Below are positions 1-14,918 of a stretch of DNA of 64,000 bases, piece after piece. The stretch is from a virus. A program made the position numbers and the translations under genes. The stretch covers positions 32,001 to 96,000 of the IMG/VR virus record IMGVR_UViG_3300017730_000002; one strand, given 5' to 3'. The first letter of the stretch is position 1; every line of letters starts with the position of its first letter. The notes beneath the pieces are model-generated. The model worked only from the letters and a program-made list of their open reading frames with translations, was not told where the DNA came from and did not search any database.

Positions 1-526
1 GAGAAACACCTTCCCAATCTACATAAGATTGCATTTTAATTTCCTTGTTAGTCTTATAATCTATAATTGATACTTTACCCTCAACTACTTCTACTAAATC
101 TGACTGACCGCATATACCTGCAGATTTTAAATAAACCATGTGTTCTGGATATACTCCTGGTTCTAACTTTTGATTTGGTGAAATTTTAACACCGTTGGCT
201 TTTAGTATTGGGCTAAAAATAGGTACAGTAACCCCACTTCTTTCTATTGAAGCTAAAGAGCATAAATCATCTTCTCTTTGATTATGGTAAAATGTTCCAA
301 GAGCCATAGCTCTTTCAGATTCTTTTTTCCAAACTTCTTGAATTTTTTTTGGTGTCATTCCATACCACTTAGAGCTTTTTCTTTTAGAAACTTTCTGTGC
401 TATCTTCTTAGCATCAAAAGGTTCTTTAAAGTGAGAGGTTAATGTTGTTACACTTATCCAATCAATTAAATCATCTTGATTAGATGATTTATAACTATGA
501 TCTTTTTCTGTAAATATTATACTCAT
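1..526 (-). CDS. PD-(D/E)XK (Cas4/RecB-like) exonuclease, truncated at window edge
   Basis: Manual translation from ATG at 526 (overlaps stop of 523..819): MSIIFTEKDHSY...SVTT...GTFYH...GICGQSDLV...IIDYKTNK; open to window edge. Confidence 0.8.
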   Translation of the reverse strand, partial: MSIIFTEKDHSYKSSNQDDLIDWISVTTLTSHFKEPFDAKKIAQKVSKRKSSKWYGMTPKKIQEVWKKESERAMALGTFYHNQREDDLCSLASIERSGVTVPIFSPILKANGVKISPNQKLEPGVYPEHMVYLKSAGICGQSDLVEVVEGKVSIIDYKTNKEIKMQSYVDWEGVS

Positions 527-2683: not shown

Positions 2684-2917
2684 TTATTTCTTATTTCTTA
2701 TTCTAGTTAATTTATCTATAGATGTTAACCCTAGTGCGCCAAATGCAAATAAAGCTACAGCGTCTACAAGGTATTCTGCTGGTCTTATATCTCCATGAGT
2801 AAAGGTATTAGCCACTAGTGATACTACAAGTGCTAAAACGCAAAGTAAACCACCTAATCTTTTAGAAGAGTAAACTCCTGTTTCATCACTTAATAATTCT
2901 TTAAAAAATTTTTTCAT
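2684..2917 (-). CDS. Putative holin
   Basis: Two TM helices, YSSKR motif, basic C-terminus; start at MKKFF (ATGA overlap) next to amidase. Confidence 0.65.
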   Translation of the reverse strand: MKKFFKELLSDETGVYSSKRLGGLLCVLALVVSLVANTFTHGDIRPAEYLVDAVALFAFGALGLTSIDKLTRIRNKK

Positions 2918-3360
2918 AGTAATCTTTTTTTTAAAAATAAAAACAATCTGTAAACCCCGTAGAGTAATACAGCTACCATTAGCCAATTAAATATTCTTTT
3001 CCAAAGTGGAGTTTTTTCGTAGTATTTAACTGGTATTTTCCTTTCAACTATTTTTTCAACAGTTACAGTATCACACTCACCTTTTATATACACAGTTTTT
3101 TTAATAGTATCGTGAAATATCTTTATAGTAAGTCTTTCTTTTTGTAGAACTAAAGTATCTCTAGTTATTTGTGTAAAGAAATGCTGATTAATAATTGTAT
3201 CATGTACTACTTTAGGTACTTCTACTTTAACTGTATCATGTATAGTTAAAGTATCTGTAGTAAGTAAATGAGGGTATTTATCTATTAGCCTAGTAAATCT
3301 TCGTTGAGGAGTACAGGCAAATAAACCTAATATTACTAATACAAAAAGGGTTCTTATCAT
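2914..3360 (-). CDS. Lipoprotein with C-terminal TM helix (u-spanin-like)
   Basis: Lipobox LFAC, DT-rich beta repeats, C-terminal TM; in lysis cassette. Confidence 0.6.
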   Translation of the reverse strand: MIRTLFVLVILGLFACTPQRRFTRLIDKYPHLLTTDTLTIHDTVKVEVPKVVHDTIINQHFFTQITRDTLVLQKERLTIKIFHDTIKKTVYIKGECDTVTVEKIVERKIPVKYYEKTPLWKRIFNWLMVAVLLYGVYRLFLFLKKRLL

Positions 3361-3650
3361 CTACTTTTAATTGCATGAATAGCTTCAATGATTTCTATTT
3401 TCATTTTAGCCATGTCATCTCTTAAATCTGTAATAGATTTTTCTTGTTTTTCACGATTAGATTCTACTCTTTCTTTAAGACCATCTACTCTTTTATGAAC
3501 CATATCTAAACTTTCTTTTAGGTTATCTAAAACCATTTGCTGTATAGCGACTTTATTTTTAAGTGTAAACCAAACAGTTAAAGCACCAACTAAAGCTGAA
3601 AGGATGGATAATAAAGCATCAAAACCTACTTGCATTTGTGAAATCTCCAT
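3357..3650 (-). CDS. Membrane-anchored coiled-coil protein (lysis-associated)
   Basis: N-terminal TM then coiled coil; likely start MEISQ. Confidence 0.55.
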   Translation of the reverse strand: MEISQMQVGFDALLSILSALVGALTVWFTLKNKVAIQQMVLDNLKESLDMVHKRVDGLKERVESNREKQEKSITDLRDDMAKMKIEIIEAIHAIKSR

Positions 3651-3725
3651 TTTCTTTTGTATAAATAATAAACATATAGTTATAATATACAAAAAATATT
3701 TAAATATACCAGGAAATACGTAGGT

Positions 3726-4613
3726 TTAAATGGGAAATTTATAGGAGTCTATTCCTCTCTGAAAGTAGTCAGCACCTTCATCTCGGATTCTTTTATAATT
3801 TATTTCTAAAATTCTGCCACCCGTAGGTTTAATTGGCGCACCTCTTTCAACATGCCAACCTTTAGATCCATCTCCATATTCTTCTTTATATGTACCTGTA
3901 AGCATCAGATGGAGCTGCTTTTGTACTTGTCTATAACTTGATCTACCGTGAACTATTGAGTCTCTTACATCGTTCCTAGAAGCATTTTCATGGATATGCC
4001 CCATAGTAAACACATCAAAATCCTCATACATTTCTAAAGCTCTTGTTAAGTTTAGCGCTCCTTTAGTAACTACACCACCTCCACCTGATCCGTGAAAGTA
4101 TCTTATTTTCATTGATGAAGAACCTTTAATAGGACCATTCTTTTTAACAATTTGATTTACTATCATCCATCCGCCATATCCACCTACCTGTACATTTGTA
4201 CCATTCTTAATGTTAAGTAATTTTACAAATCTTGCAAGTATGTCTGTTTCTTGAAATTTAATAATAGCAGTCTCGTGATTACCATACCCTATAACTGTAA
4301 GTAAATGAGCATAGGGGCTAAACCATTCTACAGCTGTTTCTACAATGCTGTCTAAATACATAGCATTGTTATGTTCTGGTCTTATATCAGACTTATTCTT
4401 TCTATTATCACCTCTACCTTGCATTAAGCAGAACATATCCCCATTAATCATAATAGGAATAGATTCTTTTAAGCAATAATCTAAATCTTGTTTTAGTTGT
4501 TTCCAGTCACATTTAGGATTATCCCAATGTAAATCTGACATCATTGCAATCTTAGCTTGTGTACCCTCAAGCTTTAGCTCGTGGATATTGCTAGCATGTT
4601 TAATTAACTTCAT
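3726..4613 (-). CDS. Calcineurin-like metallophosphoesterase
   Basis: SDLH, NGD, GNHE, HG, GHIH motifs. Confidence 0.85.
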   Translation of the reverse strand: MKLIKHASNIHELKLEGTQAKIAMMSDLHWDNPKCDWKQLKQDLDYCLKESIPIMINGDMFCLMQGRGDNRKNKSDIRPEHNNAMYLDSIVETAVEWFSPYAHLLTVIGYGNHETAIIKFQETDILARFVKLLNIKNGTNVQVGGYGGWMIVNQIVKKNGPIKGSSSMKIRYFHGSGGGGVVTKGALNLTRALEMYEDFDVFTMGHIHENASRNDVRDSIVHGRSSYRQVQKQLHLMLTGTYKEEYGDGSKGWHVERGAPIKPTGGRILEINYKRIRDEGADYFQRGIDSYKFPI

Positions 4614-9687: not shown

Positions 9688-10374
9688 ACTATAAGATAAC
9701 AATATCTGCGGACATTCCCAAGTGTAATGGATCTACGGAGGTAGAAATGTTCTATGCAAGACATTGTAGTGACTCTTGTATCAGATGGCCCCCACCACCT
9801 ACCACCCTGTTGGTACCCCCCTATGATTTGTACAGGAGAATGTGTTTTTGCTGACACAAAACCAAAAAAGCATGCTGCTGAGAAAAGTTTAGCAGGGTTG
9901 TGCAAGGTGCAAGACACAGTGGTGCTTTGTGTTGTGTAGTTTCTTTTTGTTTAGTTTGTAGATTATCCTCTGTCACATGGATTAAGTTCCATAACAAGAT
10001 AAGACTGTAAAGTCCAGTATAAAGCAAACTCCTAAGCCCTACAAGTTGAAATCATATACACTTGAGGGCTTTCTTTTTTTTTAGTTTGTAAAGTTTTATA
10101 CTATTCAAAGAAACAATCACCTTGTGTGCACAAGTGGGTGGACAGCATTGTTGAGAAGAGTATATGTAATTAGGGACAATGTACAGTAAGGTACATCCCT
10201 TTCTTTTTTTTTAGTTCTGAGGTGCAATGCAAACCTCCCGCTAAAGCACTTAGCCTTTAACACACACATAAGGGGAGGAACATTCTCAGACGTGAGAGAA
10301 AACAATGGTTAAGGCCCATTGTTTTTTTTGTGTTGTTTCTTTTTTTTTAGTGTTGAACTTTTAAAACCCATACT

Positions 10375-10548
10375 ATGAAAAATACTAAAGTTCAAATCTT
10401 TTCTGTTCCTTGTAATGAGGCTGAAGCCATTACTGCGGTTCAGAAAAAGATTAATCAGTGGCTTACCACTGGCTTATTAATCAAATATGAAATGCACACT
10501 ACTGCTACTCATATTGTGTTTAATGTTGCATTGAGAAAAGAGGCTTAG
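10375..10548 (+). CDS. 57-aa early hypothetical protein
   Basis: MKNTKVQIFSVPC...LRKEA*; between motif copies, ends in hairpin. Confidence 0.65.
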   Translation: MKNTKVQIFSVPCNEAEAITAVQKKINQWLTTGLLIKYEMHTTATHIVFNVALRKEA

Positions 10549-10727
10549 GCCTCTTTTGTTTCTTTTTTTTTATTAACTAAGTAGTGTAACACCTTAAAAC
10601 GATTATATCCTTGATGTGCTAGTGTGCATAACCACACAGGTTTATTAGAAGTCCTTAAAAGTAGCGGAGGAGGTGGCACTACTTTTTTCCTTTATTTCTT
10701 TTTTTTTAGTTAGGAAAATTATATACT

Positions 10728-10868
10728 ATGAGAAAGAAACATTTGATACCCGTTGTTTGGTTTAGTGTAATTATCCTAATTGCAACACTATTATGTTCCT
10801 GTGGATCAGGAAAAGTTAGCTGTGATGCATATGGTTCAATTGATAACACTGAAATAGATAAGGCTTAA
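10728..10868 (+). CDS. 46-aa small lipoprotein
   Basis: MRKKH-hydrophobic-LCSCGSGKVSCDAYG; paralog at 16066. Confidence 0.7.
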   Translation: MRKKHLIPVVWFSVIILIATLLCSCGSGKVSCDAYGSIDNTEIDKA

Positions 10869-10906
10869 CAGCCTTTTCTTTTTTTTTAATTAATAAAATT
10901 AAAAAT

Positions 10907-10993
10907 ATGAAAACAGTTGGATTAGATACGTTTACTACAGTAATACTAATGACATACTTTGTATGTGGTTTAATAGTTGGTTTATGCAGTTAG
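10907..10993 (+). CDS. 28-aa hydrophobic peptide
   Basis: MKTVGLDTFTTVILMTYFVCGLIVGLCS*; fills one motif-to-hairpin cassette, A-rich start. Confidence 0.5.
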   Translation: MKTVGLDTFTTVILMTYFVCGLIVGLCS

Positions 10994-11046
10994 GGGCTCT
11001 CGCCCCTTTCTTTTTTTTTAATTGGGAAATTTTAAAATATAATACT

Positions 11047-11394
11047 ATGAATGAAGAAAAATTTATTGATGTAAATGGTTTCCAAGTTATGGACTTAGCT
11101 CCTGATATGCAAAGAAAGTTAGCTTTAGTTGATTTAGATGTGTTAGTTGAGATAACAAACTCACTTCAGAAAGTTAACTCTCGTATAATTAAGCAAGATT
11201 TAATTGCAGAACTTCAATCTGTAACTAATAATGGAGAACTAACGCGAATGCAACAGTTGCTGTATATTTGTGAAAAGTTTGTTACACTTCACAAGACTGT
11301 TTTGAAAATTCAAAATATTGAGCATCCTTTAAATGAAAAAGCAGTAGCTGACCTTAATCCAATTAAAGGTAAAGACATTAGTGACATAAGTTAG
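11047..11394 (+). CDS. Early hypothetical protein
   Basis: Start MNEEK after motif copy 8. Confidence 0.7.
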   Translation: MNEEKFIDVNGFQVMDLAPDMQRKLALVDLDVLVEITNSLQKVNSRIIKQDLIAELQSVTNNGELTRMQQLLYICEKFVTLHKTVLKIQNIEHPLNEKAVADLNPIKGKDISDIS

Positions 11395-11447
11395 TGTATA
11401 GCCCCTTCGGGGGCTTCTTTTTTTTTATTTGTGAAAACTTAATTACT

Positions 11448-11810
11448 ATGGAAGAAGAATTTAAAATGGTTTGTACTGCCTCTAAAGGCAGTTATGGCAC
11501 AGGGTTTGAAGACGTGTTTGATAACATTGAAGACCTTAAGAGAGCAATTGTAAAACACGAGTGTAATCCTTGGGATGAAGAAGACAACACTTATACAGAA
11601 GATAAGTATACTGATGAACTGTTTAAGGAGGTTTGCAAAGCAAAAGATTATACTGTTGTTATTGTAAAACTTCACTCATCAGAAAAGATATCATTTGATG
11701 AGTATGACGGGACATCATCTCCTTATATTGAGAAGATAGACCCTCAGTTTAAATCTGTAATGGAATATGCAACAGAAAGACATTGGGACTTATTGAACTC
11801 AAAGGAGTAG
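11448..11810 (+). CDS. Early acidic hypothetical protein
   Basis: Start MEEEF after motif copy 9. Confidence 0.7.
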   Translation: MEEEFKMVCTASKGSYGTGFEDVFDNIEDLKRAIVKHECNPWDEEDNTYTEDKYTDELFKEVCKAKDYTVVIVKLHSSEKISFDEYDGTSSPYIEKIDPQFKSVMEYATERHWDLLNSKE

Positions 11811-11928
11811 CATTTCATAGTGCAGGGGGTAGTTCCCTTGCACTTTGTTTTGTGTATATACCACAATTTTTTTGCAAAAAATTGCATCTTCCTTTTTTCT
11901 TTTTTCTTAATTATGAAATTTATTTATT

Positions 11929-12345
11929 ATGAAACATCAGAATTATTATTACAATTACAATTTTGCAACCAAGCAAGAAGGCTTGAGTTCATTAGACTTT
12001 GAAGAGTGTCTTAAGCAATGCACATTAGTTGCAGGTAACATAATGGCATTAGACCAATTTAATGCTATCGTACCTGTAGATGAATCCCAATGTGTGGACA
12101 TTCCTACTGCAACTGCCACTGCAAATGGCAATGGCACTTTCAGAGTACCTACCTATCCTATTGAGTTATTGGGAGACTTTACCGTAATAGAAAGAGAGTT
12201 TGACCATAGACCTTGGTTTAAATGTTGGGTAGGCAAGGGTGGATATACAATAGGGGAAAGAAATGTCAATAAAGGCTGTTTCTCTATAGTTGAAACTCAT
12301 AAAGGCTTTGTGCTGTATTTGGGACAAAGATACAGACAGTACTAA
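11929..12345 (+). CDS. Early hypothetical protein
   Basis: 138-aa ORF after motif copy 10. Confidence 0.7.
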   Translation: MKHQNYYYNYNFATKQEGLSSLDFEECLKQCTLVAGNIMALDQFNAIVPVDESQCVDIPTATATANGNGTFRVPTYPIELLGDFTVIEREFDHRPWFKCWVGKGGYTIGERNVNKGCFSIVETHKGFVLYLGQRYRQY

Positions 12346-12519
12346 TATTTCATAGTGTGGGGTGTAATAGCCCTGCACTATAAATAGGTTGTCCCGTTGG
12401 GGCATAGGGCTATTGCTGTACACATATGTGGGTAATCACAATTTCTTTCAGAAATTGCATCTTTTCAGTTTCTTTTTTTTTATTTAGGAGTTTATTTATT
12501 AATTAATATATGATTTCAT

Positions 12520-12939
12520 ATGAAACTTAAATTTGAGTTTAAAGCAGATGTCTATAACGGCATCACAAGACAAGTAGCAAATTTTACAGGTACATTAGTA
12601 TCTATTGCTAAATTACCAATCAAGAATGTCAATAACACAGAGTATTACCCTGCAACTGTTGATATGAAAGATTCTCACGGGAATGTTCGTAAAGGTACAT
12701 CTTGTATGATTTACAAAACATCCTTTGACAAAGGTATGGAGATAGGACAAGACTATCTTGGCTCCGTTACCATTGAATCAGGTAAACAACCACTTATTAA
12801 GCTTACTTCAGGTACAGGCAATGGCACTCGTGCTACTATGGACGACTTTGACTTCCAAGTTGCTCCTGCACCACAACCTGTTGCACAACCTACTCAGGCT
12901 ACTACAGCCACAGAGAGTAACCTAAGTGACATAGGATAG
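12520..12939 (+). CDS. Early hypothetical protein (beta-rich, possible OB-fold) with Pro/Ala/Gln tail
   Basis: 139-aa ORF after motif copy 11. Confidence 0.65.
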   Translation: MKLKFEFKADVYNGITRQVANFTGTLVSIAKLPIKNVNNTEYYPATVDMKDSHGNVRKGTSCMIYKTSFDKGMEIGQDYLGSVTIESGKQPLIKLTSGTGNGTRATMDDFDFQVAPAPQPVAQPTQATTATESNLSDIG

Positions 12940-13365
12940 GACAATAACACTCTGCACAGCAATGTGTGGAGTGTCCTTTCAGGCTTCGCCTATCTTATTT
13001 GTTTCTTTTTATTTAGTTGTTAGTGTTCCACGTAACAATAAATAAAGTAATTATGGTCGTAAGGCATAGTATGTCCCTAAATGGTCATAAGAATACTTAA
13101 CATTGTTGGAACACAGATAGAATTGCGGAAATACTTATGTGTCTTAATCTGTTTTAGATAGTAAAACTATACCCTATATCATTGGTTGTATATTAATATC
13201 ATAATTATTCTATAGTATATAGTATTATAATATTTTATATAGCTAACTTTTTCATAATAGGTTAAGTAATAATAGTTGTTTTCTTATATATAGGATTAGT
13301 ATACTCTCTATATAGAAGATAAGATACATAGTATCCCGCATTTAGATTTGTTTGAATAGATTTAG

Positions 13366-13605
13366 GAGGGAAAACCTCGGTCATAAGGTGGGCTCTTATG
13401 ATTACTGTTGACTTAGGTTCGCTACCTTCGTTGTATCAGGGCTTAGATGTTTCGTCTAGGGTTTAATAATGCCTTTGGGTTCAACTTTTCTTGGTTGGGC
13501 AAGTGCTTCGCACTTCTTGAGTATTCAAACATTAAATAGGTACAAGTAGGGTGTATTCCCGTAAATTAGTTCTTGCTAAGTTGACAGAGAGTCAAGCCTT
13601 TTTTA
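13366..13605 (+). ncRNA. Putative structured ncRNA (~240 nt)
   Basis: ORF-free; serial hairpins (GGTCATAAG/CTTATGATT, TAGATG/CGTCTA, AAGTGC/GCACTT, TTGAC/GTCAA) ending in U-tract. Confidence 0.5.
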
Positions 13606-13615
13606 TTTACAAACC

Positions 13616-14410
13616 TATGACTAGAGAGTCGGTCATAGTATAAATGGAATAGAAATTAGAAATTGTATAGGTTCTAACGTAATTTTAAAAGTTAGTATAG
13701 GCATACAACATATGCTTAGAGGTCTGGATGACTGTCTGTCCTTAAATGTGAACTATACTATGCAATATTTTCTTTTCGCGATTTATTATCATTTCTAATT
13801 GATATGCTTCGGCTATTAATTAGTCTTAATCCCAAGTTGTCGGGATTTAAAATCACAGATGTTGAACTGTGATATGAATTCGTTCTAATAGACAAAACAC
13901 CGTGTAATCAGTACCTTTCTTGTAAGGGGAGCAGTTGCACACAAGGGTGGATAGGACAAAGACCTTACAGGGTTCTAAAACTATCAGTGTTATATGTAAA
14001 GAGTACGGTCTGTAAACTGTACGTGGTTGCATATGAAATTAGGGATTTGAGCTACTATCCTAGTAAAACGTAAAATGCTAAGTCTTAACTAAAAACAAAG
14101 AACTGGACAATGACGTGAAGTCTAAAGCTTATGGTGTAATTAGAAGTGCCTAATCATAGTTTAGAAATGAACTGTGTTATCCCGCAAGGGGTTGTGAATT
14201 TTATGTGCCAGCATAATTGAAGCAACACTTAATTGAGATGTCATTGGCCAATGATATTGATAGAGAGTAGAATGATTACATCTTATCCTGTTACTATGCA
14301 GTCGATCATAGTATGGCAAAGTTAATGAAGGATTTTTCTATCCGTGTGCTAACCCTTACAAATTGAGGGGTCATTAACATTTTGAACCGAGTAGTGCTAG
14401 GTTCTTTTTT
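13616..14410 (+). ncRNA. Putative giant structured ncRNA (~0.8 kb)
   Basis: No ORF >=60 aa; many nested helices, cUUCGg and GCAA tetraloops, terminal terminator. Confidence 0.65.
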
Positions 14411-14431
14411 ATTCACTTAAAACATTTTGAA

Positions 14432-14695
14432 ATGGAGACATTTGTATCTTACAAAAACAAAGTAGTTAATAGACGTAATGATGATCTCGCTGAGAGTAAT
14501 TTAGTCTATCCTATTGGTAAAGGGTATCATCAAGTAGCGCAACTTGATAAATCCTGGGTATTAAAGTATTTGCGTTTGAAATTAGGTCGTGGAGTTAAAG
14601 ATATTCATAACAAGTATGTAGTTCGTATTAAGAATGATATGCTTGTATATAACTGTGACGGCAAGTATTGGTTAATTAAAAAAAATAATGACTAA
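14432..14695 (+). CDS. Hypothetical basic protein
   Basis: 87-aa ORF, A-rich start. Confidence 0.65.
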   Translation: METFVSYKNKVVNRRNDDLAESNLVYPIGKGYHQVAQLDKSWVLKYLRLKLGRGVKDIHNKYVVRIKNDMLVYNCDGKYWLIKKNND

Positions 14696-14918
14696 AGAAG
14701 AAGCATTAGAAAAGACTAGAAAGAAATTCACTAACCTCTTTGATGGAGATATCCTTCCAAGGGTTAGTGTCGGTAAGATTATATCTTACTATGAATCACT
14801 TATTGCAGGTAACAAACCTATAGTTACTGATAGAGATTGTAATATTACAAGAGCATTCAATGAAGCATCGAATTATGATATGATGGATGATCTTGATGAA
14901 TATTATGATGGTATTTAA
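14688..14918 (+). CDS. Hypothetical protein
   Basis: 76-aa ORF overlapping upstream gene. Confidence 0.65.
   Translation: MTKEEALEKTRKKFTNLFDGDILPRVSVGKIISYYESLIAGNKPIVTDRDCNITRAFNEASNYDMMDDLDEYYDGI

Follow-up and report, generated by a model that had tools for sequence, protein, structure and literature searches.

A predicted ~585-nt non-coding RNA in the early region of a marine crAss-like phage, at a site that holds GOLLD in another contig

Few bacterial or phage RNAs of unknown function are as large as GOLLD and ROOL. Both are of phage and prophage origin, often lie near tRNAs and, as recent cryo-EM work revealed, form RNA-only cages via kissing loops that were first noticed as covariation; the 5' half of GOLLD is variable (PMC12286853). 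The early region of phi14:2, a crAss-like phage of Cellulophaga, includes two long intergenic stretches (g004-g006) that are transcribed above most genes (RNA-seq, GSE133609), and the transcripts, which are present from the earliest time point and persist, were termed long non-coding RNAs of unknown function (bioRxiv 10.1101/2020.03.07.982082). The element analyzed here, designated RNA E, lies in a 64,000-nt stretch of viral DNA (the window; bases 32001-96000 of the 109-kb IMG/VR virus record IMGVR_UViG_3300017730_000002). As delimited from sequence comparison, RNA E is a conserved plus-strand unit at 13828-14404 of the window (~585 nt including a U-run at 14405-14410) that follows a 5' hairpin at 13795-13823. 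It was judged, with a probability of roughly three in four, to be a stand-alone gene for a compact non-coding RNA (ncRNA) of a family outside Rfam, and a functional analogue of GOLLD and ROOL. All modules, helices and contacts given below are on the plus strand of the window.

Open reading frames (ORFs) of at least 60 aa covered 91% of the window and were lacking on both strands from 12940 to 14431 (1,492 nt), the biggest ORF-free gap (runner-up, 657 nt); the absence of such ORFs, reported in a reading of the window made from its letters (the original prediction), was borne out here under every genetic code tried. The six frames of 12940-14431 held 31-48 stops apiece with all three kinds of stop present, and recoding of TAG as Gln or of TGA as Trp (table 4) opened no frame. 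A recent pseudogene was considered at this position and rejected, as the stop density was that of random AT-rich DNA. Within the gap, 13616-14410 had been predicted to be one ~0.8-kb RNA. This stretch folded at -199.9 kcal/mol on the plus strand (z -3.24; 20 shuffles) and at -153.3 kcal/mol on the minus strand (z -1.63; 20 shuffles). A structured plus-strand RNA was upheld by the comparative analysis and its extent was revised, the conserved core being ~585 nt.

Homologues of RNA E were retrieved from IMG/VR by exact-pattern scans with blocks from the RNA (contigs L052-L061). With a copy in L047 and one on a further metagenome contig, 12 homologues were obtained, so that the RNA is carried by 13 contigs including the window. 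Ten copies were full-length (L047, L052-L060; 69-98% identity to the window) and the eleventh (L061) was cut by the contig end. Full-length copies were aligned (alignment A5; 11 sequences) and folded with RNAalifold, which returned 154 pairs, 61 of them with compensatory double changes. Three spurious A-U pairs to the terminator U-run were dropped, leaving 151 pairs in 24 helices. In these, 98.4% of alignment cells were paired, compared with 35-47% when the 3' partners were slid by 1-3 columns, and the 61 covarying pairs fell to 7-10 in the slid controls; none of 500 shuffles reached any of five structure measures. G-U combinations filled 225 cells of the helices and A-C combinations 2, which assigns the RNA to the plus strand and, together with the covariation, upholds the predicted large, multi-branched plus-strand ncRNA of the ROOL/GOLLD size class. 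Approximately 154 unpaired positions were invariant, the loop of the terminal hairpin among them, the unit was conserved end to end in the 11 members, and no stop-free frame was conserved among them. Several general marks of a stand-alone ncRNA gene were found, namely a conserved secondary structure kept up by compensatory changes, G-U pairs specific to one strand, the absence of a conserved ORF and a terminator of its own. A lack of covariation and a fold equal to that of shuffled sequence, named in the original prediction as outcomes that would speak against an RNA, were not observed for the core.

The helices (H) were arranged in a 5' domain (H1-H9, 13828-14064), a central multi-branch domain (H11-H20) closed by H10 (14076-14080/14314-14318), a 3' three-way junction (H21-H23, 14321-14378) and a terminal hairpin (H24). 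Six pairings of the original prediction recurred with covariation in 11 homologues, namely that of H24 (described below), AATCCC/GGGATT (H1), ATCACAG/CTGTGAT (H2), TATATGTAA/TTGCATATG around GTACGG/CTGTAC (H7/H8), TACTATG/CATAGTA (H20) and GTTAATGA/TCATTAAC around two hairpins (H21-H23). The CCC-GCAA-GGG stem (H15) was paired in every copy and, being invariant, provided no covariation. The cUUCGg-capped hairpin at 13795-13823 was likewise found to be real and recurs in relatives.

Tertiary contacts were sought by an all-against-all scan of unpaired alignment columns for antiparallel stacks with covariation, which returned four covarying pseudoknot (PK) or loop-loop contacts; the same scan in parallel orientation, used as a null, returned 0 stacks. 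In PK1, the H1 loop TTGTC (13837-13841) pairs with GACAA (13891-13895) through 5 pairs, 3 of them covarying, with 100% of cells paired. In PK4, the H9 loop TGAGC (14048-14052) pairs with GCTTA (14127-14131), with 98% of cells paired and a C-G pair replaced by U-A in 3 copies. The loops of H6 and H8 form a covarying loop-loop contact (TACA 13966-13969/TGTA 14011-14014) in which pair 146/192 was GC in 6 copies and AU in 5 without exception; the two loops of 6/11 copies both carry the self-complementary sequence TGCA. PK2, the weakest of these contacts, is a candidate long-range contact between the H2 loop ATGTT (13859-13863) and AACGT (14067-14071), whose 5 pairs were always paired with a single variable one (UA in 6 copies, UG in 4, CG in 1).

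The 3' end of the RNA is formed by H24 and the U-run (14384-14410; arms 14384-14392/14396-14404; alignments A5 and A6), which look like an intrinsic terminator. A terminal hairpin with a U-run had been predicted from the arms GAACC/GGTTC, and these covary in the alignment, with pairs of the outer stem changing in step (one example was AU in 5 copies and GC in 4). The loop-proximal CCGAGTAGTGCTAGG was invariant in 12/12 copies, and such an invariant loop is unusual for a plain terminator. H24 was missed by a simple terminator scan because its inner stem is 3 bp. An element of DNA rather than RNA (replication origin, packaging site or recombination hot spot) would suit the position of RNA E, which lies in a region prone to recombination and beside the conserved AT-rich element at 13123-13344; it was given next to no weight, since the excess of G-U over A-C cells is an RNA-strand signature, the pseudoknots covary, the unit closes with a hairpin and a U-run, and iterons or repeats were not found in it.

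In the window, RNA E is flanked by ORFs of 139 aa and 87 aa that belong to no PHROG family and whose products had no relatives in IMG/VR. The downstream ORF (ORF87, 14432-14695) is given as context and is not linked to the RNA. As it lies on the same strand directly behind RNA E, with the terminator-like hairpin 27 nt before its start codon, RNA E could be pictured as a cis-acting 5' leader or riboregulator (riboswitch-like or an attenuator) that controls this ORF. This was accorded hardly any weight: the downstream gene changes in nearly every carrier (membrane-like and HAD-like ORFs and a tRNA-like element were among those seen), in L048 and L049 the ORF87 homologues follow ~110-aa ORFs and not RNA E, an alternative anti-terminator pairing was not evident, and known leaders come nowhere near 585 nt and 24 helices. 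Upstream and downstream genes both vary between carriers, and this variation, together with the conserved hairpin and U-run at the end, argues that RNA E is an independent gene.

Family membership was assessed with Rfam 15 (4,227 models, including RNase P, tmRNA, 6S, OLE, HEARO, raiA, group I/II introns and self-cleaving ribozymes). Window positions 12700-14700, searched to E<=10 with the filters set permissively, gave nothing credible; the best chance-level match (E 0.041, 26 bits compared with a gathering threshold of 41.2) was among unrelated small RNAs in the flanks, and no match fell inside 13828-14365. At gathering thresholds, the sole match in the whole window was one tRNA outside the gap; the tRNA nearest to RNA E is 9.6 kb off. 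GenBank phages searched by blastn ('distant') contained no match to RNA E. Because Rfam 15 gives no match, RNA E is neither GOLLD nor ROOL; it is best read as a new family among the large ornate phage RNAs and is absent from Rfam, as the original prediction had suspected.

The GOLLD model (RF02032; gathering 150 bits) matched neither 12700-14700 at E<=10 nor the whole window at gathering, and it had 0 matches in 48 virus records, one of them the genome that the window comes from. The control genomes of that search lacked GOLLD, and the positive control was provided by cmscan of contig L051 (165.7 bits). The ROOL model (RF03087) gave no match at gathering or at E<=10. Conversely, L051 was matched neither by an nhmmer profile of RNA E nor by a covariance model (CM) built from its 125-nt 3' domain. 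That RNA E might be a highly divergent GOLLD or ROOL missed by the Rfam models is brought to mind by the slot that it shares with the bona fide GOLLD of L051, by its ROOL-like length, by its carriage on phages and by its position near tRNAs in some carriers. This was nonetheless considered very unlikely, as GOLLD and ROOL models gave no match at E<=10 while the GOLLD in L051 was readily scored, the RNA E profile and CM failed to find L051, and ~585 nt falls short of the >700-800 nt of GOLLD.

In general architecture, RNA E and GOLLD are alike in being large, ornate, pseudoknotted and protein-independent-looking phage RNAs, often beside tRNAs, and in having covarying loop-loop contacts, which in GOLLD proved to be intermolecular (PMC12286853). 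They differ in helix layout and in length (~720-800+ nt for GOLLD) and have no sequence or CM similarity; the length and organization that mark GOLLD (typically >800 nt, with the 3' half conserved and the 5' half variable) were not found in RNA E. Carriage by phages, often beside tRNAs, which marks both GOLLD and ROOL, was found for RNA E, with 13/13 copies on viral or virome contigs. ROOL resembles RNA E in its length (~580 nt), phage carriage, multiple pseudoknots and lack of a conserved protein partner (PMC12286853). ROOL occurs mainly in Firmicutes and rumen prophages, whereas RNA E was found in uncultured marine crAss-like and other virulent-looking phages.

To judge by the contigs compared, 12940-14431 is a mosaic of cassettes and not a single 0.8-kb RNA. 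Thirty-seven contigs were fetched through a related helicase (52-93% aa identity), and these had only the AT-rich element A (13123-13344) in common with the gap. Downstream of A the relatives differed, with a 599-aa or 613-aa ORF, small ORFs or non-coding DNA, and 13350-14431 was found in none of the 37 (blastn, nhmmer, whole-record search and CM). The gap was split with five metagenome contigs reached via homologues of the 87-aa ORF (alignment-based metagenome scan). Element A (69-84% identity in L003/4, L009/10, L013, L017, L047 and L051) is followed by different sequence among its carriers and appears to be the upstream edge of a variable hot spot for RNA and other cargo; its role could be that of a promoter or regulatory sequence, or of an anchor for recombination. 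It is followed in the window by module B (13345-13529), a G+C-richer, hairpin-dense insert found in L047 only (97% identity), and by module C (13530-13598), a conserved leader with a terminal hairpin (GTTGAC...GTCAAG) that is also present in L047 and L051 (91-94% identity). The module C hairpin has a compensatory G-C to A-U change in L051.

Module D (13599-13784) is an orphan non-coding insert of the window genome that constitutes the first ~170 nt of the region originally predicted. It begins after a hairpin and T-run and closes with a degenerate T-rich motif. No homologue of D was found in 62 loci, nor in IMG/VR by 20-mer search, and its fold was close to that of shuffled sequence (z -1.46; 16/200 shuffles as good). 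The predicted helices CTATGACT/GGTCATAG and TAGTATAG/CTATACTA fall in this homologue-less segment (13616-13790), which folds little better than its shuffles, and they were not sustained. A long-range 10-bp helix, AATTAGAAAT/ATTTCTAATT, is also improbable: its 3' arm is part of the conserved local 5' hairpin, and L047, in which module C is fused straight to that hairpin, retains the 3' arm and entirely lacks the 5' arm. The same observations bear on whether 13616-14410 is a single ~0.8-kb RNA that starts near 13610 and folds as a unit, with D as a lineage-specific 5' extension. The whole stretch does beat its shuffles (z -3.24), D starts just past a hairpin and T-run with no obvious terminator between it and the core, and GOLLD too has a variable 5' half (PMC12286853). 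Such an RNA was nevertheless held to be unlikely, because D is missing from L047, whose copy of RNA E is 98% identical, and from every other member, does not beat chance when folded alone, has its proposed long-range partner occupied by the local 5' hairpin, and closes with a T-rich motif as other early cassettes do. RNA E as a unit of 13828-14404, present in 12 other contigs, was accordingly retained.

The 5' hairpin (13795-13823; cUUCGg loop), identified by motif search and alignment directly upstream of H1, connects RNA E to GOLLD. Contig L051 (metagenome contig Ga0098074_1002728) has elements A and C in common with the window, as well as the 87-aa ORF and further genes, and L051:3462-3872 is a GOLLD RNA (RF02032; 165.7 bits, E 6e-45). 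Directly upstream of this GOLLD are a 38-aa basic ORF (3005-3118, Lys/Arg-rich) and a hairpin, CTAATTGATATG..., which is the hairpin that precedes RNA E in the window, L047 and L056; past it the sequences part ways, to GOLLD in L051 and to RNA E in the other three. Unrelated hairpins occupy this position in the other carriers of RNA E. By this comparison, RNA E and GOLLD are interchangeable at one slot behind the same leader and 5' hairpin, and both close with a hairpin and T-run. The 38-aa basic ORF of L051 recurs ahead of RNA E in L056 and L053 and is present in L017 and L035 as well; its product may be an RNA partner. A boxA-like leader was seen by eye after the hairpin of the L051 GOLLD and was not convincingly identified in RNA E; no claim is made for it.

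In related phages the same early-region site holds Hatchet self-cleaving ribozymes (RF02678; 86.7 bits each), at L013:2850-2987, L011:571-708 and L060:10438-10575 (minus strand), just downstream of element A in L013 and ~465 nt upstream of RNA E in L060. The early-region site is thus a hot spot for structured-RNA cargo that includes RNA E, GOLLD, Hatchet ribozymes and small orphan modules. Precise cassette swaps at a site that also holds ribozymes, a patchy distribution over at least two phage lineages and the many invariant unpaired nucleotides would be explained if RNA E were itself a large ribozyme or the RNA of a mobile element (guide/omega-RNA, bridge RNA, intron-like RNA or processing ribozyme). 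This was considered quite unlikely, since genes for a nuclease, recombinase or reverse transcriptase are missing beside it, the ribozyme and intron models of Rfam gave no match at E<=10 and flanking exon halves were not found. The conserved adjacent nuclease or transposase that marks guide/omega-RNAs of the HEARO/IscB type was likewise lacking, as the flanks differ among carriers.

In six of nine RNA E carrier records the helicase was 55-69% identical to that of the window, placing these six, by sequence, in the same broad phage group. One carrier has a helicase merely 27% identical, and a 166-kb carrier contig (L059) lacks the helicase and has RNA E ~60 nt after a tRNA-Pro. A profile hidden Markov model and the 3'-domain CM, applied to 38 sources including phi14:2, recovered known members only, and 185k prokaryote species genomes, scanned with two exact patterns, contained 0 matches. 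RNA E is on these data an optional, horizontally exchanged cassette of uncultured phages from at least two lineages. Its carriers are probably marine, one relative of ORF87 being a Tara contig.

The setting is consistent with the marine crAss-like phage named in the original prediction. The minus strand of the window encodes proteins of 4,572 aa and 1,945 aa, the nearest cultured relatives of the replication genes are crAss-like phages of Flavobacterium, Bacteroides and Cellulophaga (helicase ~30% identity), and the rightward genes begin near 9940, which puts RNA E ~4 kb into the early rightward-transcribed region of the ~109-kb phage. In phi14:2 (NC_021806; L062), 2904-4602 is free of ORFs (~1.7 kb, 2.9-4.6 kb from the left end) and matches the location of the early long non-coding RNAs, which rank among the most abundant transcripts of this phage. 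Both phages are Crassvirales-like with a Bacteroidota host, and both have an ORF-free stretch of ~1.5-1.7 kb located ~3-4.6 kb into the rightward early region; homology between the phi14:2 stretch and RNA E was not found by blastn, nhmmer profile or 3'-domain CM. Several small ORF annotations at 2904-4602 of phi14:2 have been withdrawn, the stretch has no Rfam match, and its structure seems not to have been described.

By analogy with phi14:2, RNA E would be made early and abundantly, probably by the virion RNA polymerase. The folded RNA would be a rigid particle that needs no protein and, by analogy with the large ornate phage RNAs of the GOLLD/ROOL type, would do the same job as these. Homo-oligomers may be formed via the H6 and H8 loops (self-complementary UGCA in 6/11 copies), although this is speculative. 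RNA E would act in trans on some component of the host, for instance ribosomes or tRNAs, and not in the regulation of a neighboring gene; the target is again speculative.

Several points weigh against this reading of RNA E. The alignment comprises only 11 sequences, some of them close kin, and the four tertiary contacts were picked post hoc from the scan; the H6-H8 contact could be purely intramolecular. A sigma-70-type scan for a promoter of RNA E stayed at background level and identified none, and the sequences upstream of RNA E are not conserved across lineages. Expression, 5' end and abundance are inferred. GOLLD was found at the slot in the single contig L051 and in 0/48 other records. 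RNA E has no similarity to GOLLD, ROOL or the ORF-free region of phi14:2, so that its working like GOLLD is argued from position and general architecture only.

Should RNA E be a stand-alone analogue of GOLLD and ROOL, the replacement of GOLLD, cassette for cassette, by an unrelated ~585-nt RNA would argue that the three families are functional equivalents, and the exchange between related phages would constitute a natural swap experiment. The finding ties the class of large ornate RNAs to the early region of Crassvirales-like phages, for which phi14:2 is a cultivable model, and its compact size and strong covariation make RNA E a good target for structure determination. A bolder proposal, which is doubtful, is that RNA E is a third, unrelated family of self-assembling ornate phage RNAs, swapped with GOLLD by marine crAss-like phages at one early slot, transcribed by the injected virion polymerase at the very start of infection and assembled via the H6-H8 UGCA loops into an RNA-only multimer that captures a host component such as ribosomes or tRNAs. 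If true, GOLLD, ROOL and RNA E would be convergent solutions to one takeover task.

Further elements were noted around the RNA. Modules B and C together (13345-13606) form a ~260-nt G+C-richer unit that closes with a hairpin and T-run. The fold of B and C had a z of -2.55 (200 shuffles), a hairpin in module B (13383-13401) has one compensatory U-A to C-G change, and module B, or the combined unit, may represent a second small RNA gene. A tRNA-like element of ~80 nt that neither ARAGORN nor Rfam called lies by RNA E at L053:1011-1090 (+), upstream, and at L058:~440-520 (-), downstream. Its acceptor-like stem of 7 bp differs between the L053 and L058 copies by two compensatory changes, a long hairpin replaces the D and anticodon arms, and the T arm is canonical (GGTKCGAATCC). 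In L009:3778-4320, L013:2990-3697 and L017:2177-2850, at the equivalent position, 0.5-0.7 kb are without an ORF of at least 60 aa, and these stretches might hold further unclassified RNAs. Finally, a G+C-rich hairpin with TTTCTTTTTTTTTA[GAT]TT behind it was observed in 12 copies, all on the same strand, between the early cassettes at 9940-13020 of the window, with variant hairpin/T-run copies (C-TTTTTTATT-yAC) after module C (13598) and RNA E (14403); the hairpin with TTTCTTTTTTTTTA also occurs upstream of RNA E in L055 and L058. The repeated copies are probably early-region terminators, possibly coupled to re-initiation.

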